Shown here piece by piece: positions 8,813 through 63,018 of a stretch of 63,018 bases of DNA. The notes beneath the pieces were generated by a model, which did not search any database, was not told where the DNA came from, and worked only from the letters and a program-made list of their open reading frames with translations. Every line of letters begins with the position of its first letter. The stretch's first letter is position 1. A program made the position numbers and the translations under genes. The DNA lies in UHGV virus genome UHGV-0170870, one strand, 5' to 3'. Origin of the DNA: a virus.

Positions 8813-8886
8813 CGTCTATCGGCCGTCAGAGAACGGGGCGCTCTGACGGCTGCCATTCCCTCACGCCACCAAAAGGACGGACTACT

Positions 8887-9222
8887 ATGCTCGAAGCCAA
8901 TACCATTCTCGGAAACAACGCCATCATTCTGACCGCGCTGAAGAAGACGCTGTTGGCGGCTGGCGAGCCCCTCTGTGCCGCGCTCGTCGCAGTCGGGGCG
9001 CGGAGCGATACCGAGGTCAAACAGCTCAGTGACGCCAATGTCGAGAGCGACATCGTGAAAGCGATGCTCTTCGACCAGGCATTCATCATCGCCGCCCTGG
9101 CTATGTTCGCCGACAACGAGACCGACAGCACGTTGCTCAGGCTCATCGGGCAGTCGACCAAGGGCATCGCGAACGAGATCGGCAAGTCTGCCAAGACCAC
9201 CGACACCGCCGAAGCCGCGTAA
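8887..9222 (+). CDS. hypothetical protein
   Basis: 111-aa ORF; the overlapping 250-aa minus-strand ORF looks like antisense. Confidence 0.4.
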   Translation: MLEANTILGNNAIILTALKKTLLAAGEPLCAALVAVGARSDTEVKQLSDANVESDIVKAMLFDQAFIIAALAMFADNETDSTLLRLIGQSTKGIANEIGKSAKTTDTAEAA

Positions 9223-9223
9223 C

Positions 9224-9367
9224 ATGGGGATCATCGACTTCCTCGACGCCCACTTCATCGGCCTCAGCGTGGTCTTCTTGACCGCGTGGACGATCACCTG
9301 GGTCGGCCGAACTGTGGTGGCGAGCACCACGACCACGACGATCTCTCGCGTAATCAGCACCAACTGA
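9224..9367 (+). CDS. small hydrophobic protein (47 aa)
   Basis: ATG 2 nt after upstream stop; predicted peptide MGIIDFLDAHFIGLSVVFLTAWTITWVGRTVV...; below ORF-track size cutoff. Confidence 0.25.
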   Translation: MGIIDFLDAHFIGLSVVFLTAWTITWVGRTVVASTTTTTISRVISTN

Positions 9368-9455
9368 TTCAACAACTACCGCACGGGTGATCCCATCTCC
9401 CGTCACCCGTGCGCCCGCGCTGTAACCTCCGTCACCTTACAAGGATCGCATCACC

Positions 9456-11261: not shown

Positions 11262-11312
11262 TATTTAATTGACAGGCTTGTAAGGCGCGTGAGATGACAT
11301 GCACCTTACGAC
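11262..11312 (+). promoter_or_regulatory. promoter-like element, class 1, with flanking inverted half-sites
   Basis: ATTTAATTGACA-N17-AGATGA; half-sites CTTGTAAGG and CCTTACGA flank the -10 region. Confidence 0.5.
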
Positions 11313-11442
11313 CCCCAATCTAACTGATCGGCCGTATCTAGGAACCAACCCAGATACGGCCGATCTGCCGAAAGGGACCGCTGCCAACGCCAATCAGCAA
11401 TGCGGTCGGCGACTCAATAACATCCGCGTCACGGGAAGGCTA

Positions 11443-13758
11443 ATGGTAAATCAGGACGATGCGCGCCGCGTACAGAACAAGCACAACGCGATGTTGCTCG
11501 CGCGCAACGGCATCCCCGTGTTCCCGTCCAGTGGAAAGGTGCCGCTGGTCAAGCTCTACAATCGCAGAGACACCGAGATAAAACCCGAGGATCGCGAAGC
11601 CGCTATCGAGCAGGCACGCGAGGAAGGGAACAAGCAGCTCACAGTCTTCGTCGGCGCGACGACCGATCCCGACATCGTCAAGCGCATGTGGCGTCACCCG
11701 AACCAAGATGCGGTTCCGTCCGTAGCGTGCGGGCCTGCGCGCCTGGTCGTGATCGACGCCGACACCAAGTTCAACGGTCCCGAGCTGATCGGCAAGCTCT
11801 TCGACGAGCACGGCGGCGTGCCCGAAGGCACGCAGATCATCACGACACAATCGGGTGGCCGCCACTACATCTTCAGCGATCCCGACAACGCCTTCACGAA
11901 TAGCGCTGGCGCGCTCAAGAAGCAGTACGGCTGCGACGTGCGAGGGCGCGGCGGTCAGTTCGTTGCGCCTGGCTCGCTCCGTGAGGACGGCAAGCGCTAC
12001 GGAGACCAGGCCGCGCTCAAGGCGTTCATCGAAGCCTACACCAACGGCACGATCCCGCCGCTCCCTGATTACATCGTCGAGCTGATCGGCACGTCCTCGG
12101 CGGAAGTGGGGGAAGATATCCCCATCTCCAAAGAGCGCGAGATCATCAAGCAGATCGACGAGGCGGACATTCCCGAATGGGAAGAGCTGTGCGCGCCGCT
12201 CGGCGAGTATGACTTCGACAAGCTGCAAGCCGAGAACAGCGAGTTCAAGTCGCTCTACAACGAGCCCGGCGACGACTGCTCCGACAACCGCTTCAAGGCT
12301 GCGCGCCACGTCATGCGCGAGTGGCCGCAGATGCCGCCCGAACACCTGGCGTCGTTCTTCCTGGCCTTCGAGGGTGCTGGCGAGTTCGTCGACAGCAAGC
12401 CGCGCTCCGGCGAATACGACAACCGGCAGACCGCTCGCGAGTGGCTGAAGAACCAGGGTCTCAGCAAGGCGTCGACCGGCGAGGCGTTCGGCGCTGTCGT
12501 CGACGATGACGAAGACTCCGAGTACGAGCGCGAGGTCGCCGCAGAGAAGGAAGCCGAGAAGGCCGCCAAGCCGAAGGGCACGCTGCGCCGCATGTCTGGT
12601 GTCGCGATCTACGCCGATCCGAACTGGATGGTCGAGAATATCTGCACGCGCGGTATGGTCGGCATGCTTCATGCTCCGTCGAATGCCGGTAAGACGTTCA
12701 GTGCATTCCACATGGGCGGCAAGCTCTCCGAAGGGTGGGAGTGGTTCGGCCGCAACGTCGAACAGTGCGGCGTTCTCTACTGCGTCGGCGAAGGCCACGG
12801 CGGCATCAATCGCCGCGCGCTCGCCTGGTCGAACCGCTACAAGCCCAAGCACGATGCGCTCATCTTCCGCGACGGCGTTCCGAACTTCGCGCTCGATCCG
12901 AAGGGCGCGCGTAGGGCGTTGCGCAAGGCCGTCAAGGAAGCGAACGCGATGCTTGAAGGCGAGGGGCTTTCAGTCGGTCTGTTGTTCCTCGACACGTTCG
13001 CGAAGGCCGTAGCGGGTGCCGAGGAAAGCTCGGCGCGCGAGATGCAGCCGATCCTCGATATGCTCCGCGAGCTGGCCGTCGAGTTAGACATCTGCATCAT
13101 CATCGTTCACCACTCCGGCAAGGACACGTCGCTCGGTGCGCGCGGCAGCTCGGCGATCTTCGCCGATGTCGACTTCAACCTTGAGATCGTCAACGCCGAC
13201 CAGGCCAAGAAGAAGCACGGGCTCTCGCTCAAGCATAAGAGCCACTCGGCGATCATCATGCCGAAGATGCGCGACTCGGGGAAGTCAGGCCGCTTCGAGT
13301 TCAAGCTTGAAGAGGTCGAGCTAGGCAAGAACAAGTGGGGCAACCCCGTTACATCAATGGTCGTGGTCGAGGTCGAGGACAAGCCGTCCGAGGGCTCCGC
13401 GTTCGGCGTCGTCGACGAAGAGGCCCCCACAACCAAGGACGAGTTGACGCCCGAAGTGAATCGCTCCGACGACAACAGCCGCTTGAAGCTCTGCGCGAAG
13501 ATCATCAAGGCCGTGCAGAAGATCGGCAAGCTCGTCGGCAAAGAGGTCCACGCCGACGCCGAGATGGTGCGCCTCGAAGTGAAGGCGATGCAGGACATCT
13601 ACGACGAGGCCGGGCCGGACAACTACGCCAGGGCGTTCAAGCGCCGTGTGTTCGGCGGCGACGAGGTCAAGCGCTTCGTGCCCGAGGCGAACGGATCGCT
13701 GCATTACGTGACGCAACGAGGCAAGCCGAGCATGCTTGTGTTCAAACCCCGATCATAG
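11443..13758 (+). CDS. bifunctional primase-polymerase / P-loop replicative helicase (primase-helicase)
   Basis: N-terminal prim-pol features (GIPVFPSSGKVP, VVIDADTK); Walker A HAPSNAGKTFSA and VHHSGK in C-terminal half; start set at ATG 11443 with GGAAGG RBS because the ORF-track start 11299 lies inside the upstream promoter-like element. Confidence 0.8.
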   Translation: MVNQDDARRVQNKHNAMLLARNGIPVFPSSGKVPLVKLYNRRDTEIKPEDREAAIEQAREEGNKQLTVFVGATTDPDIVKRMWRHPNQDAVPSVACGPARLVVIDADTKFNGPELIGKLFDEHGGVPEGTQIITTQSGGRHYIFSDPDNAFTNSAGALKKQYGCDVRGRGGQFVAPGSLREDGKRYGDQAALKAFIEAYTNGTIPPLPDYIVELIGTSSAEVGEDIPISKEREIIKQIDEADIPEWEELCAPLGEYDFDKLQAENSEFKSLYNEPGDDCSDNRFKAARHVMREWPQMPPEHLASFFLAFEGAGEFVDSKPRSGEYDNRQTAREWLKNQGLSKASTGEAFGAVVDDDEDSEYEREVAAEKEAEKAAKPKGTLRRMSGVAIYADPNWMVENICTRGMVGMLHAPSNAGKTFSAFHMGGKLSEGWEWFGRNVEQCGVLYCVGEGHGGINRRALAWSNRYKPKHDALIFRDGVPNFALDPKGARRALRKAVKEANAMLEGEGLSVGLLFLDTFAKAVAGAEESSAREMQPILDMLRELAVELDICIIIVHHSGKDTSLGARGSSAIFADVDFNLEIVNADQAKKKHGLSLKHKSHSAIIMPKMRDSGKSGRFEFKLEEVELGKNKWGNPVTSMVVVEVEDKPSEGSAFGVVDEEAPTTKDELTPEVNRSDDNSRLKLCAKIIKAVQKIGKLVGKEVHADAEMVRLEVKAMQDIYDEAGPDNYARAFKRRVFGGDEVKRFVPEANGSLHYVTQRGKPSMLVFKPRS

Positions 13759-52228: not shown

Positions 52229-52627
52229 GTGGAAAACAGAGTGATGGCCGAAGTAGTTCTTTTCCCTCTCAACGCCAATGATCCCAACGTCGATCCTTCG
52301 CTGATCGACCCACCCTCTTTGCTCGCGGAATCTTCCAAAGCACGCGAGATCATCCTTGAATTAGAACATGAACTGAACGACGCGAAGTGCGTAATTGCGG
52401 ATCAGGCCATCGCACTCACCAAGAACAGCTCCCGACGAAGAGGCGCGAAGCTTCTTCTGGCAGCCATCGCCGCGTTCTTGATCGGGTGGGTTATCGACCC
52501 GCCCGCGCCGATCCACAGGCTGATATATGGCGACAAAGCCATAGCGACGGAACTAAGCTATCGGTTCCCGCACGCCTGCACCTTTACCTGCTCCATCCCT
52601 CCCAAGACCGACGCCCGAGACATCTAA
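52229..52627 (+). CDS. hypothetical membrane-anchored protein
   Basis: GTG start 1 nt after an 11-codon upstream ORF with strong RBS; lower-GC region. Confidence 0.35.
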   Translation: MENRVMAEVVLFPLNANDPNVDPSLIDPPSLLAESSKAREIILELEHELNDAKCVIADQAIALTKNSSRRRGAKLLLAAIAAFLIGWVIDPPAPIHRLIYGDKAIATELSYRFPHACTFTCSIPPKTDARDI

Positions 52628-52821
52628 AAGAACGCGCTGTCGTCGTAGCTGTGGGTAACCACGGCTTGATGCTCATCGCCTTCAGCGAATACGACCGTGT
52701 CGCCCGGCATGACCTCCGCGACGGCACGGTGATCCCAGAACCGATGGACGAAGTCCGGTCGGCCGAACGTCTTAACGGCGTTCAGATATCGGTCGTCCTT
52801 GAAGCGCACGAAGTGCAGCAT
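52624..52821 (-). CDS. hypothetical protein
   Basis: 65-aa ORF, last gene of a short leftward operon. Confidence 0.3.
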   Translation of the reverse strand: MLHFVRFKDDRYLNAVKTFGRPDFVHRFWDHRAVAEVMPGDTVVFAEGDEHQAVVTHSYDDSAFF

Positions 52822-55853: not shown

Positions 55854-55993
55854 TGACCAAACCCAATAAGGTTAGCGACGACGATGAGAATCTTGACCGC
55901 GATCATCAGGCCGCATCCGAGGGAGACACCGCCTACGATGCCAATGGCGGTCCCCTTCAGGATCGCCACGGCGCATTGCTTGAAGCTCCGCAT
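55850..55993 (-). CDS. small hydrophobic membrane protein (47 aa)
   Basis: ATG 55993 overlaps upstream stop (TGATG); MRSFKQCAVAILKGTAIGIVGGVSLGCGLMIAVKILIVVANLIGFGQ. Confidence 0.3.
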   Translation of the reverse strand: MRSFKQCAVAILKGTAIGIVGGVSLGCGLMIAVKILIVVANLIGFGQ

Positions 55994-57837
55994 CAGTCTG
56001 TCTCCACGCGTTTGAAGTAGACGCGGTAGACCGAGAAGCGGGTCTTGACGATCACGTCGCCGTGTTGGTCGAAGAACATCTCTTCGATGCGGCTTGTGGT
56101 GATCGGCTCGCCGTCGATGAAGCGACCCTTGGTGTCGCCGTAGACAGGGCCTTTGACGCAAGGCGCATGCGTCGGATCGCTGGCCGTATCGTTGTAGAAG
56201 ACCGCTTCCTTGATAGTGCCGTGGACCTGCATAGGTTCCTTTCCGAGAGGCTTGCGATTCTCCGCCCACACGAACTTGTTCTCCGTGGGGCTGAGCGACT
56301 TCGAGTTCTGATCGCCAAGCGTCTCGGCGACGAGAGCCCACATGGGGTGATGGTGGGAGCCCGCGCCGAGCCTCCACTGCGTCGTGTTCTGATTGACGAA
56401 CTCGCGGAAGAGGCGCAGCGCGGTTGTCGGGTCGATGGCGGCCATCAGAACTTCTTCCCGTTGGCAGCCAGGCGCGCTTCCGGCTTGTGGTCCGCGCGAT
56501 GCTTGTTGTACTCGCGCTTCCGGCTTGTGGTCCGCGCGATGCTTGTTGTACTCGCGCTTCTCGGCGACAGCGGTCCACAGGTCGTAGCCGTGCTGCTTCG
56601 CGTACCCTTCGATCAACGCGATGGCGTGGATCAGCCGCAACGCGCGATCGCGATTCGACATTGCCCGGTTGACGTTCGTCACCATGCGGCTGATGCGGAG
56701 CAACGCCTGACCCTTGTTGGCCGGGAGATCGTCGACAGGGGTCTTGAAGTTGAACGACGACGAGAGCGGAATGCTACCGAGGATGTCCCCGATGCGAATG
56801 ACAGCGTCGGCCAACTCGACTTCCGCCATCTTCCGCTTCGGCAGATGGTCGTCCATCAAGTTCTTGCGCTCACCTTCCATACACTCCGCCAGCTCGGACA
56901 CGACGAGCATGAGCATCTCGCCCATGTTGCGGTTGAGCTTTTCGCCGGTCGCCGGATCGTGCCACCAGTGCGCGTTGGCCGCATGGACTTCCTGCGCCCA
57001 TGCGTTCAGGCTTGCAGGACGGCCCTGCTCGAAGCGACGAAAGTCCCATCCCCCGCTCTCGCCCTTGTTGTAGTCGTCGTTTTCGAGAACAGCGTATCCG
57101 TTGTGGAAGCCGACGATGTTGTACGTCTTGCCGACCGTTAGACGACGGTTACCCTCGATGCAGCGAGCGGGGCCAAGCTTCAGCGCGCCCTTCTTCCGAT
57201 TCCACACGTCAAGCGCCTTCTCGGCCTGTGCGCGCGTCACGAACATCGACGCCGAGGGCGGAACGTCGCCAGCCGTGAACAGGTCATCGTCCTCGTTGAC
57301 ACGCGGGTCGATGTACGGCGTGCCGATCCACGGACGCTGCTCCTGCATGCGGGGCAGGGCGCGCGACGACGGACGCATCTGTTCGCCGTACAGTTCGCGC
57401 GGCGCGAGCGGCTTGGCGTCTGCGGGCAGAACGTCCTCGTTGAAGGACGCCTCGCGGTCGCGCAGCGCGTTCGCGACCTCGGACGGTTCGAGGCGTTGCG
57501 GCAACTCGGCCAGTTTCTTGCGGGCGAACTCCGCGACGGCCGGGAGGTCTTCCGGCTTCACGTCGGTCAGCCGGTTGGCCTTTCCGTGGACCCTGACGGC
57601 CGTGACAACGTGGAGCCTGTCGGGGTACGCGTCGCGCAGCTTCACCAAGAGCGCCTTGACCTCAGAGTGCGTCAAGGTGGGAGGCGCAGGCGGAGCGCCG
57701 GTCTTCGCAAAGGCGATCAGATCGGCACGGAGCTGCGCCGCCATCGCAGTTTCGATAGCCTCGCGCGTCGCACGATAGCTGCCGCCGAAGTCCTTCGGGA
57801 TGAGAAACAGAACAGTGGGGGTCATGGTAGGTGACAA
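55993..57837 (-). CDS. fusion ORF: unknown N-terminal domain + MazG-like NTP pyrophosphohydrolase-like domain, fused in frame to a downstream 150-aa ORF by a 40-bp tandem duplication
   Basis: MazG-like segment EMLMLVVSELAECMEGER...AEVELADAVIRIGDILG; removing one 40-bp repeat unit restores a stop (…HKPEARLAANGKKF*) overlapping ATG of the MAAIDPTT ORF. Confidence 0.5.
   Translation of the reverse strand: MSPTMTPTVLFLIPKDFGGSYRATREAIETAMAAQLRADLIAFAKTGAPPAPPTLTHSEVKALLVKLRDAYPDRLHVVTAVRVHGKANRLTDVKPEDLPAVAEFARKKLAELPQRLEPSEVANALRDREASFNEDVLPADAKPLAPRELYGEQMRPSSRALPRMQEQRPWIGTPYIDPRVNEDDDLFTAGDVPPSASMFVTRAQAEKALDVWNRKKGALKLGPARCIEGNRRLTVGKTYNIVGFHNGYAVLENDDYNKGESGGWDFRRFEQGRPASLNAWAQEVHAANAHWWHDPATGEKLNRNMGEMLMLVVSELAECMEGERKNLMDDHLPKRKMAEVELADAVIRIGDILGSIPLSSSFNFKTPVDDLPANKGQALLRISRMVTNVNRAMSNRDRALRLIHAIALIEGYAKQHGYDLWTAVAEKREYNKHRADHKPEARVQQASRGPQAGSAPGCQREEVLMAAIDPTTALRLFREFVNQNTTQWRLGAGSHHHPMWALVAETLGDQNSKSLSPTENKFVWAENRKPLGKEPMQVHGTIKEAVFYNDTASDPTHAPCVKGPVYGDTKGRFIDGEPITTSRIEEMFFDQHGDVIVKTRFSVYRVYFKRVETD
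56481..56560. repeat. Perfect 40-bp tandem duplication (2 units) inside coding sequence
   Basis: Units 56481-56520 and 56521-56560 are identical: CGGCTTGTGGTCCGCGCGATGCTTGTTGTACTCGCGCTTC; 40 is not a multiple of 3. Confidence 0.9.
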
Positions 57838-58730: not shown

Positions 58731-61019
58731 TCATTCCTTCTTGTAGCGATCATCGGACCAACCGCTGGCCGCGATGGGGAGCCCGAGCCGGTTGCCTTTC
58801 GGCAGAGCCCACACAGGCGGGGTGGTGAAGATTTCGTGGAACTCGTCCTCGCTGCCGAAGTCCTCGTCGGTCTCGGCAACGCCTTCGTCGTGGACGCTCA
58901 GCACGTTCTCGTAGCCTGCGGCTTCGGTGTTCATGATCGCGTTCGCCATCACGTCGCGAGCTGCGGCCTGCGTGACGTTCTCCGCGCCGAGCCCGCCGTA
59001 GTAGTGCTGGTCGGACCACTTGCGGGTGAAGCTGTCGTTCGCCTTGAAGATCAGCGTGCGCTTCGACTTGCCCCACGGGGTCGGCTTCCACTCGACACGC
59101 GGATACGGATAGAAGATCGAACGGCCACTCGGCAGCTTGCAGCGGAGGAACGAGCCGGTCATGTTGAACGTGATGAACTCGCCCGCCTTGAACTTCTGGC
59201 CGGGGTTCTCCACCGCGTTGATCGCCGCCTCTTCGAGGTCGTACCAGAACTGCACGATCTCCGGATTGTTCTCGCGCCAGGTGAGCTTGACCATCTCGGC
59301 CGCGAGCCAGGCCTTCTTCTTGATGCCCGACTTCCGGCCGCGATCCTTCCAGCCTTCGAGCGCGCGATCCCGGTTGTCCGGCGACGTGACGGCCCACACC
59401 GTGTCGAAGATGAGCGCCAGGTCGACGCGGTAGACCTTCGCCATGTTGGCGAACGCCGACGCGCCACCGCCGAAGCCGAGCGCGAGCACGGCGACCTTGC
59501 CGACCTGGCGCTGATCCTTGCTGACCTCTGCGACCGGGATGTTGTAAATCTGCGAGGCCGCGACCTTGTAGTTGTCGGGGCCGTTACCCTTATCGAACTC
59601 GAAGAACGCCGCGATAGCTTCGTGCGCGCCAGCCAGCCAGGGCAGGGTGCGGGCCTCGATGCCGGTCAAGTCACGCGAGCGCAGCACCCGGCCCTCGGGG
59701 GCCATGAGCATGCCGCGCAGACAGTCGGCGACCACCGAGATCGGCGGCCCGAAGATCGCAGCAATGTCCTGCCGGGACCAACCGGCCTTGATGCACTTGA
59801 TGGCGAACGGAACGTCGGTCTTCAGCGCGGGGTCGGGACGCGGCAAGTTCTGCAACTGCACGCCACGCGCGGCCCATCGGCCGGTCTGTGTCGCGCCGTG
59901 GTATTGCAGCGAGCCCTTGATCTTGCCGTCCTTGCAGACGCGCTCCGTGAAGGCCTTCAGCTTGGCGATGGACGCCTTACCGGCTTCTAGCCTGATCTCG
60001 ACCGCACGGCGCGCATCGTCCGGCAGGTCGTCCCGGCCGAGCAGCTTTTCGAGCGTTTCCTTCGAGCAGTTCTCAATCTGATGGTCTGACAGCTCATCGG
60101 CCAGACGGGCGTTGACGAACTCTTTGAGCTGCTTGACCGCGCCGAGCGTCGAGACGCGCAGTTCGGTGACCTGGCGCAGCTCGAACTCAAGGGCTTCCTT
60201 TTCCTCGTTGCAGATTTTCTCGGCCTTGGCGACCAAGTCCATGTCGACCATGATGCCACGGTCGTTGATGATCTGATCGAGGAACCAAAGCTCCTGCTCG
60301 CGCGAGATGAGCTTGGTGACGCGATGCCCGATGCCCTGCTCGACGCGAACGTCTTGCAGACAGTAGTCGTAGATGATCTTGAACTTGTCCGGCGCGTTCT
60401 CCGGGGTGAAGCGCGTTTCCGGGTTCTTCTTCGACGGCTTACGCGGCTTGCAGAGCTGCTTGATGACGCGCGAGCCGACATCGTCCTTGCGGATCGGCAG
60501 GCCGAAAGCCGGAGCGGCGTGCTCCAACTTCGCGGGCATGTTCATCGCCATCGCGCGGACCATGATGCAACGGTACTGGCGCAGGTCAGGGACCGGCCAG
60601 CCGTACTTCGGGCCTGCGACGTACAGCCAGATCAGCCGTTCGAAGTTGGCGTTCCAGGCGTGGACTTCGCCGCCAGCCTTGACGTGGTCGACGATGTCCT
60701 GGGGGCAGGGCTCGTCAGGAAACCAGAGCTGCGGTTCATCGTCGCCGAACGCATAGGCGGCGCAAAGAATCTCCGTGCTCTTGTGCTCGGCGTACTTGTG
60801 CGCGCCGACATCGGGCAGGTCGATCTCGCTGTACGTTTCCCAATCGAGATGCAGTTCGGCAGGCTTGTGGATCGCCGTGCGACGAGTGACGGGGCCATAG
60901 CCGAAGCGCTCGCGCAGAGAGGGGGGAACGTCGATCCCCATCTCGCGCATCATATCGGCGGCGCTGTCGTAGCCGAGCACTTCCCAATCGGCGAATTTGT
61001 CTAGGGCTTCATGCCGCAT
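58731..61019 (-). CDS. family A DNA polymerase with N-terminal 3'-5' exonuclease domain
   Basis: Exo motif DWETYSEID; polymerase motifs RQVGKVAVLALGFGGG and SVHDEGVAE; start proposed at ATG 61019 overlapping upstream stop; ORF track extends to 61067. Confidence 0.85.
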   Translation of the reverse strand: MRHEALDKFADWEVLGYDSAADMMREMGIDVPPSLRERFGYGPVTRRTAIHKPAELHLDWETYSEIDLPDVGAHKYAEHKSTEILCAAYAFGDDEPQLWFPDEPCPQDIVDHVKAGGEVHAWNANFERLIWLYVAGPKYGWPVPDLRQYRCIMVRAMAMNMPAKLEHAAPAFGLPIRKDDVGSRVIKQLCKPRKPSKKNPETRFTPENAPDKFKIIYDYCLQDVRVEQGIGHRVTKLISREQELWFLDQIINDRGIMVDMDLVAKAEKICNEEKEALEFELRQVTELRVSTLGAVKQLKEFVNARLADELSDHQIENCSKETLEKLLGRDDLPDDARRAVEIRLEAGKASIAKLKAFTERVCKDGKIKGSLQYHGATQTGRWAARGVQLQNLPRPDPALKTDVPFAIKCIKAGWSRQDIAAIFGPPISVVADCLRGMLMAPEGRVLRSRDLTGIEARTLPWLAGAHEAIAAFFEFDKGNGPDNYKVAASQIYNIPVAEVSKDQRQVGKVAVLALGFGGGASAFANMAKVYRVDLALIFDTVWAVTSPDNRDRALEGWKDRGRKSGIKKKAWLAAEMVKLTWRENNPEIVQFWYDLEEAAINAVENPGQKFKAGEFITFNMTGSFLRCKLPSGRSIFYPYPRVEWKPTPWGKSKRTLIFKANDSFTRKWSDQHYYGGLGAENVTQAAARDVMANAIMNTEAAGYENVLSVHDEGVAETDEDFGSEDEFHEIFTTPPVWALPKGNRLGLPIAASGWSDDRYKKE

Positions 61020-61596
61020 CGTAGCGCCCCGGATGTTTCTCGGTGCTGGTGAGCGGTTGGAAGCCACGGATCGGCGGCAGAAGCGTCGTCCAGATGTACC
61101 AGCTACAGTTCATGGTCGGACGGCCTTCGCCGGTCACGTCGAGCCGCCAGGTGAGCGGCAGGATCAACGAGGGCTTGTGCATCGCGAACAGCTCGACGCG
61201 GTTCTTGGCGTGGTACAGGCCGCTCGGCAGGAGCATCGCAATGTGGTCGATCCCCAGGATGGTCTGCGCGTGAACGAGGAACTCGTCCGACAGCGAGAAG
61301 GGAGGGTTGGTGATGATCGACGGAGCGAGCGGGCGATCCTGCGACAGGAAGTTCACGCCGATCCGGCCGTAGCCACGATCCGTCAGGTTAGACGAGAAGA
61401 CGTTGAAGCCCGCAGCCAAGAGCTGCTTCGAGATATGACCGGCTCCGCAGGCGTTCTCCCACACGTCGTTCGGCCAGCCGATCTCGCGCAGGGTGGGGAT
61501 CAAGGCGCGCGTCGTCCCCTCCGCAGTCGGAAAGAACTCATCGCCCTTCTCGCGCTTGCCGTTGCCGCCGTTCATAGCTGCGCCGATATTCTTCAC
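61009..61596 (-). CDS. DNA methyltransferase (amino-MTase, NPPF motif; probably N6-adenine)
   Basis: ENACGAGHIS (motif I-like) and IITNPPF (motif IV); 195 aa, no adjacent restriction enzyme seen. Confidence 0.55.
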   Translation of the reverse strand: MKNIGAAMNGGNGKREKGDEFFPTAEGTTRALIPTLREIGWPNDVWENACGAGHISKQLLAAGFNVFSSNLTDRGYGRIGVNFLSQDRPLAPSIITNPPFSLSDEFLVHAQTILGIDHIAMLLPSGLYHAKNRVELFAMHKPSLILPLTWRLDVTGEGRPTMNCSWYIWTTLLPPIRGFQPLTSTEKHPGRYDAA

Positions 61597-61715
61597 TGTG
61601 TCTCCATTGTCGGTGATGCGAAAACGGGCGTGGTACTATCCCCCGCCCGCTGCGCTTCTTAGGCGCTTCGCATGCGACCCTCCTGCGTTGGTGGAACATC
61701 GCTGTCCATTAGTGC

Positions 61716-61760
61716 AGTGGTCGAAATGTAAGCTGACGCACCTTACACGTCAACTAAATT
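61716..61760 (-). promoter_or_regulatory. promoter-like element (TTGACG-N17-TACATT)
   Basis: Minus strand TTTAGTTGACGTGTAAGGTGCGTCAGCTTACATT upstream of methyltransferase-polymerase operon. Confidence 0.4.
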
Positions 61761-61762
61761 CC

Positions 61763-62047
61763 CTAGCCGAGGGGGTCGTCCTCAGCCAGCTCCGAAGTCG
61801 CGGTGTTGAAGCCAAACAGTTGCTCATAGAGCGACATGTTGGTGTCGTGCGCCGCCTGCTCGTCGAGAGCTGCCGCTTCGTTCATGCGGATTTTCACCAG
61901 GGCGGCGACCTGCTTGAAGTCGACGCCGGTCTCGTCCGAACGACCCTTGATCTCGGTCTTCAGGTCGGCCTTCGAGTCGGTGTATTCCGCCTTCACGTCA
62001 GCGAAGCCCTGCTCGATGTTGAAGAGCCGCTCGACGTAGCTCTTCAT
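61763..62047 (-). CDS. DUF2312-like (UPF0335) small protein
   Basis: TGVDFKQVAALVKIRMNEAAALDEQAAHDTNMSLYEQLFG pattern; start at internal ATG 62047; ORF track extends to 62206. Confidence 0.4.
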   Translation of the reverse strand: MKSYVERLFNIEQGFADVKAEYTDSKADLKTEIKGRSDETGVDFKQVAALVKIRMNEAAALDEQAAHDTNMSLYEQLFGFNTATSELAEDDPLG

Positions 62048-62084
62048 GACATCGGTGTCGACGTTGTCGGCGTTGTTGGGTTCG

Positions 62085-62315
62085 TCACTCACGGTGTGTA
62101 GCCTCGCGCATGATGGCGATTGCGAAGTCGACCGCCTCGTCCCGATCCATGCCGATAACGTCCCCGTCGTTGACGCTGAACGTGAGCCAGTAGTGCTCAC
62201 GCGCATTCACTGCGGGGTCCACCGAAGCGATGAGGGTGTCGCCACCCCCATCCTTGAACTTCAGCGTGCGCAGATCGGGGATGCCCCGGTCGTTCTTGAA
62301 CTTGATCTTCGCCAT
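62085..62315 (-). CDS. hypothetical protein
   Basis: Start at ATG 62315 overlapping upstream stop (TGATG); ORF track extends to 62498. Confidence 0.35.
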   Translation of the reverse strand: MAKIKFKNDRGIPDLRTLKFKDGGGDTLIASVDPAVNAREHYWLTFSVNDGDVIGMDRDEAVDFAIAIMREATHRE

Positions 62316-62974
62316 CAGTCCAGCGCGTCCTCGTCTTCGTCCTCGTCGTCGACCGCGCTGAAGGCTTCGCCCTTCGAACCGCCGCCCTTCGAGATCGAGT
62401 CGTCGTTGCCGAGCAACTGAACGGCGTCGACGTAGAACTTGACGCCCTTGTTGTCGTCGCGGTTGTACGCCTTCGGCTGAAGCATCAGGCGACCCCAACG
62501 GCCGCTGTACGCCTCGGTCTGGATGTCGTCGAGATCGAGAACCTCACCGGCGCTGTTGCGCACGACCGGACGCTTCGAATAGGCGTTCGGGCGAATGAGC
62601 TTCCAGCCTTCCAGATCGACCGGCTCACCCTTCGACGTGATGTCGGCCAGGTTGATGTCGGCGTCGAGGAACGGGAAGTTCAGCTTGTGGTCGGACCACT
62701 TGGTGAAGTCGGACAGGACCGACGACTCGATGATCTTGCCCTTCTTGTTCTTGAACTTCTCGGCCACCGCCAGGTCGAGGATGACCTTCTCGATGGGCGC
62801 GTGGTTCACATGGGGCGCGAAGATCATCGACGCGGCGAACTGGCCTTCGTCATCCGGCTTGGCATCGCGGGCACGGAATTTCTTCGCGAGCGCCACGAAC
62901 ACCAGGCGTCCCTTCGGAGACATCCAGCGGTCTTCGCTCTCGATGTAGTGCCACTTCTTCAGGTCGGTAGTCAT
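62315..62974 (-). CDS. putative ssDNA-binding protein with acidic C-terminal tail
   Basis: 219 aa; C-terminal KGEAFSAVDDEDEDEDALD tail; first gene of the replication operon; family assignment tentative. Confidence 0.35.
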   Translation of the reverse strand: MTTDLKKWHYIESEDRWMSPKGRLVFVALAKKFRARDAKPDDEGQFAASMIFAPHVNHAPIEKVILDLAVAEKFKNKKGKIIESSVLSDFTKWSDHKLNFPFLDADINLADITSKGEPVDLEGWKLIRPNAYSKRPVVRNSAGEVLDLDDIQTEAYSGRWGRLMLQPKAYNRDDNKGVKFYVDAVQLLGNDDSISKGGGSKGEAFSAVDDEDEDEDALD

Positions 62975-63018
62975 AGAAAGGTTACCCTCCTAGGTCTCAG
63001 GTCGTCAGGTGACAGACC

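Follow-up and report, generated by a model that had tools for sequence, protein, structure and literature searches.

Three replication proteins of a temperate phage carry the same short acidic peptide, which very probably serves as a docking peptide for one common receptor. A common docking handle is the most likely reading of the sequences because the motif is both conserved and changing in step across many phages (Table 1). The phage genome, UHGV-0170870, is a stretch of 63,018 bp with 61.9% G+C, and the whole of it is referred to here as the window. The motif, G-[DE]-A-F-[GS]-A-V followed by an acidic run, occurs in four copies: one at the C terminus of a DUF2800/Cas4-like exonuclease (hereafter the nuclease), two within a primase-helicase, and one in the C-terminal tail of a T7 gp2.5-type single-strand-DNA-binding protein (SSB). 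The original prediction, made from the sequence of the window, had placed the motif in these three proteins; translations and a six-frame regular-expression search confirm all four copies, at positions within a few bases of those first given (Table 2). The minus strand encodes the nuclease, then the SSB, then a family A DNA polymerase (PolA), in an order that runs over the ends of the window, as in the duf2800-gp2.5-polA replication/recombination module known from Steczkiewicz et al. 2021 (PMC8093625).

In translation, the nuclease ends in KLSTGDAFGAVEDDDE and the SSB in SKGEAFSAVDDEDEDEDALD, and the two copies of the primase-helicase are found in the contexts KASTGEAFGAVVDDDEDSE and SEGSAFGVVDEE (the latter residues 698-709). 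An AlphaFold2 model of the primase-helicase, built on a 79-sequence alignment, has a mean predicted local distance difference test score (pLDDT) of 86.9 and three folded blocks: Prim-Pol (residues ~50-390), helicase (~440-695), and a C-terminal domain (717-819). The internal segments with pLDDT <50 are 394-405 and 697-716, which correspond to the two motif copies, together with a stretch of three residues at 271-273. The tail of the SSB (residues 191-219), the last 20 residues of which have a net charge of -9, is modeled with a pLDDT of ~50; the motif residues 201-216 lie at 50-70, compared with <50 for the Gly linker at 196-200. In the full-length monomers of the SSB and the primase-helicase, every motif copy is of low confidence and no docking in cis is seen, a null result that favors disorder and is silent on the receptor. 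From sequence and models, every copy is thus a conserved peptide within an acidic segment predicted to be disordered, as is characteristic of short linear interaction motifs.

The regular expression [GS][DE]AF[GS][AV]V matches three sites only in the six frames of the window, in the nuclease, the primase-helicase, and the SSB, and relaxing it to AF[GS][AV]V adds only the second copy of the primase-helicase. Given the composition of 71 proteins selected by G+C content at third codon positions (GC3), 0.002 matches would be expected by chance in the proteome and ~0.015 in six frames. Because this pattern was defined post hoc, an unbiased scan was also run, in which all ungapped 12-mers of the 71 proteins were compared with one another under BLOSUM62 and 20 shuffled proteomes served as the control. 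The top inter-protein pair joins the nuclease and the primase-helicase (score 53; TGDAFGAVEDDD and TGEAFGAVVDDD), followed by nuclease-SSB (47) and primase-helicase-SSB (45), the maxima in the shuffled proteomes being 39-46. The nuclease copy and the first primase-helicase copy are identical at 12 of 14 residues, four of these 12 sharing a codon; as the codons differ, conservation lies at the peptide level, just as had been claimed from differences in codon usage. In the window and in 16 related loci, regular-expression scans find the motif in the nuclease, SSB, and primase-helicase only. An acidic tail is absent from the SNF2 helicase, the RuvC-like resolvase, PolA, and the methyltransferase of the window, and the motif is in none of the PolA tails of the module loci.

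Judged from homologous sequences, the motif is a property of the duf2800-gp2.5-polA module and not peculiar to this phage. The motif search in related phages that the original prediction had called for finds it kept in ~100 primase-helicases, 45 SSBs, and the nuclease tails of ~50 loci. The SSB homologues, with 100% to 28% identity, retain G[DE]AF[GSAE][AP][VI][DE]DED, and F205 is among 10 invariant columns in 39 of them. Primase-helicase homologues down to ~30% identity have [ST]G[DE]A[FML][GE][AP]V.D[DE][DE] at the same place; many are from Bradyrhizobium genomes, and some have a different helicase domain. In the 79 aligned homologues, S392, G394, and A396 each reach a conservation of 90% or more, and conservation along copy 1 runs from 0.9 for each of S, G, and A, through 0.7 for F/G/A, to 0.8 for V and for D, followed by a gap-rich linker at 0.1-0.3. 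The second copy, as [AG][AS][FML][GS]AV.D[DE]E, is positionally conserved in most homologues. Nuclease tails in the clade of the window read DAFDAV, DAFGVA, DSFGAV, AVFGAV, and AAFGVV.

Further afield, 39 viral contigs recovered via the nuclease carry [DE][DE]F on the nuclease C terminus and the SSB tail in nearly every case, and these loci span 29% to 66% G+C. Overall, an acidic-acidic-aromatic motif, in locus-specific variants, is present on the nuclease, the SSB, and the primase/helicase of ~50 duf2800-gp2.5-polA loci, among them those of cultured phages of the Chi-, Jersey-, phi12-, and PaMx-like groups. Non-homologous primase-helicases of the VapE-like or D5-like superfamily 3 (SF3) type carry A.[DE][DE]F in an interdomain linker near residue 350; in their N-terminal region, DxD and SxH motifs like those of archaeo-eukaryotic primases (AEP) were recognized by eye. 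In the Salmonella Chivirus 118970_sal1 (NC_031930, 1002..10816), a relative of Enc34, five proteins of the replication region have like tails: the primase ends in PFDDEDEV, the exonuclease in AWDDEDDDEV, the SSB in AWDEDEDWEDEV, the helicase in VWDDEE, and orf4 in GEEDDV. Staphylococcus aureus phi12 has tails ending in AEDDFDKL and in AEDDFDELDTDDEDFL (AEDDFDEL...), Pseudomonas phiH1 has ESDFDAVDDGEQSY at the end of its nuclease and EDDFEVWEDPDE within its primase/helicase, and the motif is also present in Pamexvirus. PolA is found in nearly all loci from which nuclease and SSB were recovered, the missing calls falling mostly at contig ends.

The copies do not vary independently of one another. 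An acidic residue occupies position +1 in every copy of L046 and L048, and in the Jerseyvirus S532, the anchor is Leu in the nuclease, SSB, and helicase-primase alike; in L015, it is Leu in the copies of the nuclease and primase-helicase and Trp in that of the SSB. In a permutation test, the flanks of the nuclease and SSB motifs (five positions, anchor excluded) were compared for same-genome and shuffled pairings, giving p ~5e-5 for 28 loci, 2e-4 to 5e-5 for 13 high-GC loci, and 1e-4 to 2.5e-4 for ten non-redundant high-GC loci. Composition could contribute to such co-variation, and it is this that the test within the high-GC stratum addresses. Copies from the same genome are thus more alike than copies from different genomes, unlike the outcome of independent drift, and the sequences argue for concerted evolution of the copies within one genome and therefore for one shared receptor.

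Table 1. Variants of the motif in proteins of the same genome.
Genome	Nuclease	SSB	Primase-helicase
L046 (with P0051, presumed same genome)	DAFDAV	EAFEAV	DAFEPV, DALDAV
L048	DAFDAV	EAFEAV	DAFEAV
Window	FGAV	FSAV	FGAV
L047 (with P0081, presumed same genome)	FGVA	FGAI	FGVI
L005	SEFEAV	ADFEPV	ADFEPV, SEFEDD
L007	AWFAGLEDE	EAFAGLEEE	
L011	SDFNDGF	DDFNDDF	
Jerseyvirus S532	VTEDDLEA (C-terminal)	VDDLEDDEEDE	DEEDLDDEE

From these patterns we infer that the motif is a docking peptide comparable to the "acidic tails" of T7, which here would also be placed on a nuclease and in internal linkers. A pocket of the receptor would take up the invariant hydrophobic anchor, which is Phe or, in some lineages, Met, Leu, or Trp, together with the small or hydrophobic residues behind it (G-A-V), and the flanking run of Asp and Glu residues would steer the peptide electrostatically onto a basic surface. 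Because all three carriers display the same peptide, nuclease, primase-helicase, and SSB would occupy the one receptor site in a mutually exclusive manner and with fast exchange, providing for the tethering and hand-over of the proteins that make single-stranded DNA (ssDNA), the helicase and the exonuclease, and the protein that coats it. Our candidate for the receptor is the phage PolA, a tentative choice made by analogy and with somewhat less than even confidence. It is favored because it is a motif-free member of the core module and because, in T7, the tails of gp4 and gp2.5 compete for basic patches on gp5.

Several observations weigh against this reading. When 26 module PolAs were aligned with T7 gp5 by MAFFT, the region of the front basic patch (K587/K589/R590/R591) aligned poorly and yielded no alignable equivalent of these residues. 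The aromatic residue is not C-terminal as in T7: it lies 8 residues from the end in the nuclease and 14 in the SSB and is internal in the primase-helicase. PolA is not the only conserved non-carrier in the clade of the window, the SNF2 helicase (kept in the same operon across the related loci L046-L051) being another and a possible receptor, and the way in which DUF2815 proteins pack in crystals favors the SSB groove over PolA (PMC5686142). The motif alignments were anchored by hand, and the co-variation signal is weak in 15 low-GC loci (p = 0.02-0.15). Finally, the primase-helicases of L055 and L056 have intact motif copies (SSGEAFGAVVDEDE and SKGDAFGFVSDDD) in the absence of nuclease, gp2.5-type SSB, and PolA from the 10-kb flanks, and L040 and L042 are probably similar. 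On this gene content, a PolA receptor does not explain the motif in elements that lack PolA.

The alternative that survives best, a close second to PolA as receptor and possible rather than probable, places the receptor site in the groove where the gp2.5-type SSB binds ssDNA, the acidic-aromatic peptide acting as a mimic of ssDNA. The groove of free SSB would be filled by its own tail, the nuclease tail and the linkers of the primase-helicase would hold free SSB where ssDNA arises, and emerging ssDNA would displace the peptide, so that SSB is loaded directly in a hand-off. In crystals of Enc34 ORF6, 4JG2, 4KLK, and T7 gp2.5, the C terminus is indeed located in the concave β-sheet of a neighbor, the Enc34 contact burying 842 Å2 (PMC5686142), and the 4JG2 chain ends in NAADDFTTIEDDD (...DDFTTIEDDD), which corresponds to the motif described here. 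Removal of the Enc34 tail alters DNA-binding specificity; for T7, the tail and ssDNA are reported to compete for one surface (Marintcheva 2008), and AlphaFold places the tail in the groove (PMC12339929). Every carrier makes or binds ssDNA, and the slight excess in pLDDT of SSB residues 201-216 over the adjacent Gly linker is in the direction that a groove-bound tail would give. Set against this, AlphaFold2 does not confidently dock the SSB tail of the window in cis, and the crystal contacts may be packing artefacts. A groove filled with ssDNA would, moreover, be unable to recruit partners to coated DNA, and the motif is also found on primase-helicases of elements that lack a gp2.5-type SSB, where the peptide would need to fit a host SSB of another family.

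A broader version of the groove scheme is more speculative still. In this module-wide "tail code", each ssDNA-producing enzyme (exonuclease, primase-helicase, and sometimes a second helicase) would carry a co-evolving SSB tail peptide that plugs the groove of free SSB, such that SSB is chaperoned and loaded onto nascent ssDNA, and a second C-terminal motif, found on the SSB and a GapR-like protein, would address another receptor. If true, both the mechanism of SSB loading and the two-address tail would be undescribed for any replisome; Chivirus 118970_sal1 offers a cultivable system in which the code could be tested.

The stand-alone primase-helicases imply either that the motif has several receptors or that it binds a protein of the host or a site on the primase-helicase. 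In L055, a serine recombinase and the primase-helicase lie on a small chromosomal island of Bradyrhizobium sp. 170 (CP064703.1 7657860-7679971), possibly a satellite-like element. L056 is a prophage on a metagenome scaffold, with an integrase, three small open reading frames (ORFs), the primase-helicase, a terminase, and a portal. When L040, L042, L055, and L056 were compared with the window proteome by blastx, nothing nearby was conserved except the primase-helicase; in the phage-like loci among them, terminase, portal, and structural genes match further along. The original proposal of a shared motif for a common hub is therefore borne out insofar as the copies change in concert within genomes, whereas a hub confined to the phage module is not the sole possibility.

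We nevertheless consider it unlikely that the receptor lies outside the nuclease-SSB-PolA module. It would then be either a conserved protein of the host replisome or a site on the primase-helicase, such as one between the subunits of its hexamer, and nuclease and SSB would have taken over the peptide of the primase-helicase in order to dock at it. The primase-helicases of L055 and L056 (with L040 and L042 similar) do keep the motif alone, that of L056 being the only visible replication gene of its prophage; the two copies in the window protein flank the helicase domain, as they would if intrinsic to a helicase, and the T7 gp2.5 tail also touches gp4. However, the same logic of motif placement is seen with the non-homologous VapE and D5 types and with the separate primase and helicase of the Chivirus, for which one helicase fold is insufficient, and the AlphaFold2 monomer shows no docking in cis. 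For a host receptor, the difficulty is that the motif resembles neither the β-clamp motif QL[SD]LF nor the C-terminal tip of bacterial SSB (SSB-Ct), DDDIPF-COOH, and flank co-variation among close phages fits a slowly evolving host protein less easily.

More improbable again is the absence of a common partner, with the acidic segments serving as autoinhibitory electrostatic shields, each folded back over the DNA-binding site of the protein that carries it, as has been proposed for the gp2.5 and gp32 tails, and with their likeness reflecting one physical need that arose three times. In favor of this, DNA is a ligand of all three proteins, competition of acidic tails with DNA is well documented for T7 gp2.5 and T4 gp32, and the motif persists in stand-alone primase-helicases. 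Three separate self-interactions would not, however, shift flanks and anchor in concert within a genome, nor would they keep the specific string S/T-G-[DE]-A-F-G-A-V, with its near-identity between nuclease and primase-helicase, and the AlphaFold2 models of SSB and primase-helicase have no segment docked in cis. Least of all do we credit a chance or compositional match of low-complexity acidic tails, or recent gene conversion: acidic runs are frequent in replication proteins and the primase-helicase-SSB score of 45 lies inside the range of the shuffled maxima, but the three best matches of the proteome hit one peptide, two of them scoring above all shuffles, the regular expression is expected far less than once, the conserved part is the non-acidic core G-x-A-F-G-A-V, retained in homologues down to ~30% identity, and the differing codons exclude gene conversion, so that homologue conservation, the all-against-all scan, and the permutation test effectively refute this reading.

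By analogy, the closest precedent is T7, where the gp2.5 and gp4 tails act on gp5, and not the SSB-Ct hub of Escherichia coli. T7 gp2.5 ends in EESWDEDDEESEEADEDGDF (...EDGDF) and gp4 in SESTDWSNDTDF (...NDTDF), a common acidic aromatic tail. These tails bind to, and compete at, the front basic patch and the thioredoxin-binding-domain (TBD) patch of gp5, the family A DNA polymerase that pairs with thioredoxin (PMC12339929; bioRxiv 10.64898/2026.05.20.726333), and the gp2.5 tail also fills its own ssDNA cleft (PMC12339929). In both systems, an SSB of the same family and a primase-helicase bear an acidic, disordered, aromatic-anchored peptide. The differences are several. The T7 aromatic residue has a free carboxylate, whereas the anchor Phe here is followed by further residues, and the motif of the primase-helicase is internal and duplicated in inter-domain linkers. 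A Cas4-like exonuclease is the third carrier, whereas the T7 gp6 exonuclease is without such a tail; the primase-helicase combines an AEP Prim-Pol domain with AAA_25, whereas that of T7 is DnaG-like with a superfamily 4 (SF4) helicase. To these may be added the front-basic-patch residues of gp5, unalignable in the poorly aligning PolA family of the window.

The tip of bacterial SSB-Ct, D-D-D-I-P-F-COOH, is a hub in which one tail serves many partners. The original prediction had likened the motif to such SSB acidic tails. The likeness holds to the extent that, in both, acidic disordered segments with a hydrophobic or aromatic anchor organize genome-maintenance proteins, but the topology here is inverted, with many proteins carrying one tail, the acidic run comes after the Phe, a Pro-Phe-COOH terminus is missing, and the SSB belongs to another fold family. 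Mimicry of bacterial SSB-Ct was likewise rejected as an identity for the motif: the SSB tail ends in EDEDALD, the fold is of gp2.5 type, and [DE][DE][DE][IL]PF-COOH is lacking. The β sliding-clamp motif QL[SD]LF is also a short linear motif with which replication and repair proteins compete for one pocket, and it too was rejected: no copy has a Gln or the spacing of QL[SD]LF/QxxLxF, the L-x-L-F spacing is missing, and the context here is strongly acidic.

Acidic, unstructured tails like that of the window SSB are found in the Enc34 ORF6/DUF2815 SSB (Cernooka et al. 2017, PMC5686142). The portions of PMC8093625 and PMC5686142 that could be searched as text cover the genomic setting and the acidity of the SSB tail but mention no sequence motif that the SSB has in common with the nuclease and the primase/helicase and no co-variation, and the literature searched holds no earlier description of a shared, co-varying motif in the duf2800-gp2.5-polA module. 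Known, then, are the principle of docking by acidic tails, the module, and the SSB tail; new are the nuclease as a carrier and the internal, duplicated linker copies.

The duf2800-gp2.5-polA cassette is among the commonest replication/recombination cassettes of phages, known from phages of the Chi-, Jersey-, phi12-, and PaMx-like groups and from many prophages. A shared, co-evolving peptide provides for it a testable wiring diagram of which proteins compete for one site, and would extend the T7 principle of tail exchange to a nuclease and to internal linkers. Lineages in which the anchor is switched in all copies, from Phe to Leu or Trp, constitute natural experiments on the receptor pocket, and the motif peptides are ready probes or inhibitors. 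The motif also offers a sequence signature for replisome members in unannotated phages, and it has already exposed a mis-annotated Jerseyvirus SSB. This is the 209-aa "DNA polymerase" of Salmonella phage vB_SenS_S532 (OK108609.1, 6129..6758), which a hidden Markov model (HMM) derived from the loci recognizes as a gp2.5-like SSB (E = 2e-15). Its acidic motif is followed by a basic C-terminal extension, ETPRRERRRNR, and the neighboring PolA carries an intein.

The extreme C terminus of the SSB holds a second motif, acidic-[AP]-L-[DGSA]-COOH, which resembles the end of the 147-aa ORF just downstream and is not found in the nuclease or primase-helicase. The SSB and the downstream ORF end, respectively, in DVDPLG and DVDPLA in L050, DDSLS and DEDVLS in L047, DGALD and DDDALG in L003, and DGALD and EDDPLS in L046. 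Because the ends of the two proteins are alike and co-vary across relatives, the sequences suggest that the SSB tail carries two separate addresses. The L048 homologue of the 147-aa ORF matches GapR_DNA-bd (PF10073) above the cutoff.

The window is a complete, circularly contiguous temperate-phage genome, in which integrase, terminase, portal, and tail genes are encoded. The IMG/VR contig L001 (UViG_2751185733_000001) runs from 59784 to 63018 of the window and continues into 1..9400; it crosses the junction of window end and start, and the nuclease and SSB genes at opposite ends are therefore neighbors. The minus-strand operon has the order RuvC-like resolvase, SNF2 helicase, nuclease, SSB, 147-aa ORF, methyltransferase-like ORF, PolA, MazG-like pyrophosphatase, and integrase, and the primase-helicase is located in a divergent plus-strand operon. 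The identities originally assigned to the three carriers agree with their matches to DUF2800/PDDEXK_1, Prim-Pol and AAA_25, and Enc34_ssDNA-bd (DUF2815), respectively. DUF2800 nucleases are found in 1,502 of 50,697 phage records, and that of the window has a Cys cluster of the form C..CxxCxxxxxC (C23 and CKFCPAAHGC). Residues G464 and K465 of the Walker A motif of the primase-helicase show no variation in its 79 homologues. Its true start is probably Met49 (ATG at 11443), because the first 48 codons (11299..11442) are unconserved and have a pLDDT of <50, and homologues begin near residue 50.

Sequence and model place the SSB in the T7/DUF2815 family, as a predicted binder of ssDNA. It matches PF10991 (Enc34_ssDNA-bd) at 5e-11 with 43 bits (cutoff 26) and PHROG 112 at 7e-18. 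Its AlphaFold2 model, with a core pLDDT of ~90, is an oligonucleotide/oligosaccharide-binding (OB) fold with a long capping helix, as in Enc34 ORF6 and T7 gp2.5, and the best Foldseek matches in the PDB are 5odk/5odj/5odl, 4klk, 4jg2, and T7 gp2.5 (1je5), each with a probability of 1.00. No other SSB was noticed among the annotated proteins of the window.

Table 2. Coordinates in the window of the motif copies, the genes that carry them, and other features.
Feature	Position	Strand	Remarks
Nuclease motif copy, last 14 residues, STGDAFGAVEDDDE	301..342	-	Beyond the Pfam domain, which stops at residue 412
Primase-helicase motif copy 1, STGEAFGAVVDDDEDSE, residues 392-408	12472..12522	+	Linker between primase and helicase domains
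Primase-helicase motif copy 2 (weaker), EGSAFGVVDEE, residues 698-708	13390..13422	+	Linker between helicase and C-terminal domain
SSB C-terminal tail, KGEAFSAVDDEDEDEDALD	62318..62374	-	First motif (GEAFSAV and acidic run), then acidic-A-L-D-COOH
Second motif, SSB end EDEDALD	62318..62338	-	
Second motif, 147-aa ORF end AEDDPLG	61766..61786	-	
DUF2800/Cas4-like PD-(D/E)XK exonuclease gene, 431 aa	298..1593	-	PF10926 2.9e-67; PF12705 7.3e-11; PHROG 69 "exonuclease"
Prim-Pol (AEP) and AAA_25 (RepA/DnaB-like) primase-helicase gene, 819-aa ORF	11299..13758	+	PF09250 1.7e-23; PF13481 1.7e-28
T7 gp2.5-type (DUF2815) SSB gene, 219 aa	62315..62974	-	PF10991; PHROG 112 "Gp2.5-like ssDNA binding protein"
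Family A DNA polymerase (PolA)	58731..61067	-	PF00476; PHROG 17; module member, motif-free
SNF2-family helicase	4142..5428	-	PF00176; PF00271; PHROG 62; motif-free
Small ORF just downstream of SSB, 147 aa	61763..62206	-	C-terminal SELAEDDPLG
Cysteine-dioxygenase-like accessory gene	3567..4091	-	PHROG 4786, 4e-36; in the replication operon
614-aa protein with central MazG-like pyrophosphatase region	55993..57837	-	PHROG 5658, 2e-53; in the replication operon
65-aa ORF	52624..52821	-	Acidic-aromatic tail, C-terminal HSYDDSAFF

The phage collection holds no close cultured relative, the primase-helicase matching there at no more than 31% identity over one third of its length. A primase-helicase gene 100% identical to that of the window is present in draft genomes of Streptomyces iakyrus ISP-5482, Phycicoccus jejuensis B-24460, and Streptomyces xylophagus B-12029, the first of these on a 63,072-bp contig that comprises approximately the whole window. 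The phage looks like a contaminant common to the libraries of these three unrelated NRRL actinomycetes and not like their resident, given its G+C content and the occurrence of its nearest primase-helicase relatives in Bradyrhizobium genomes; its true host is probably an alphaproteobacterium.

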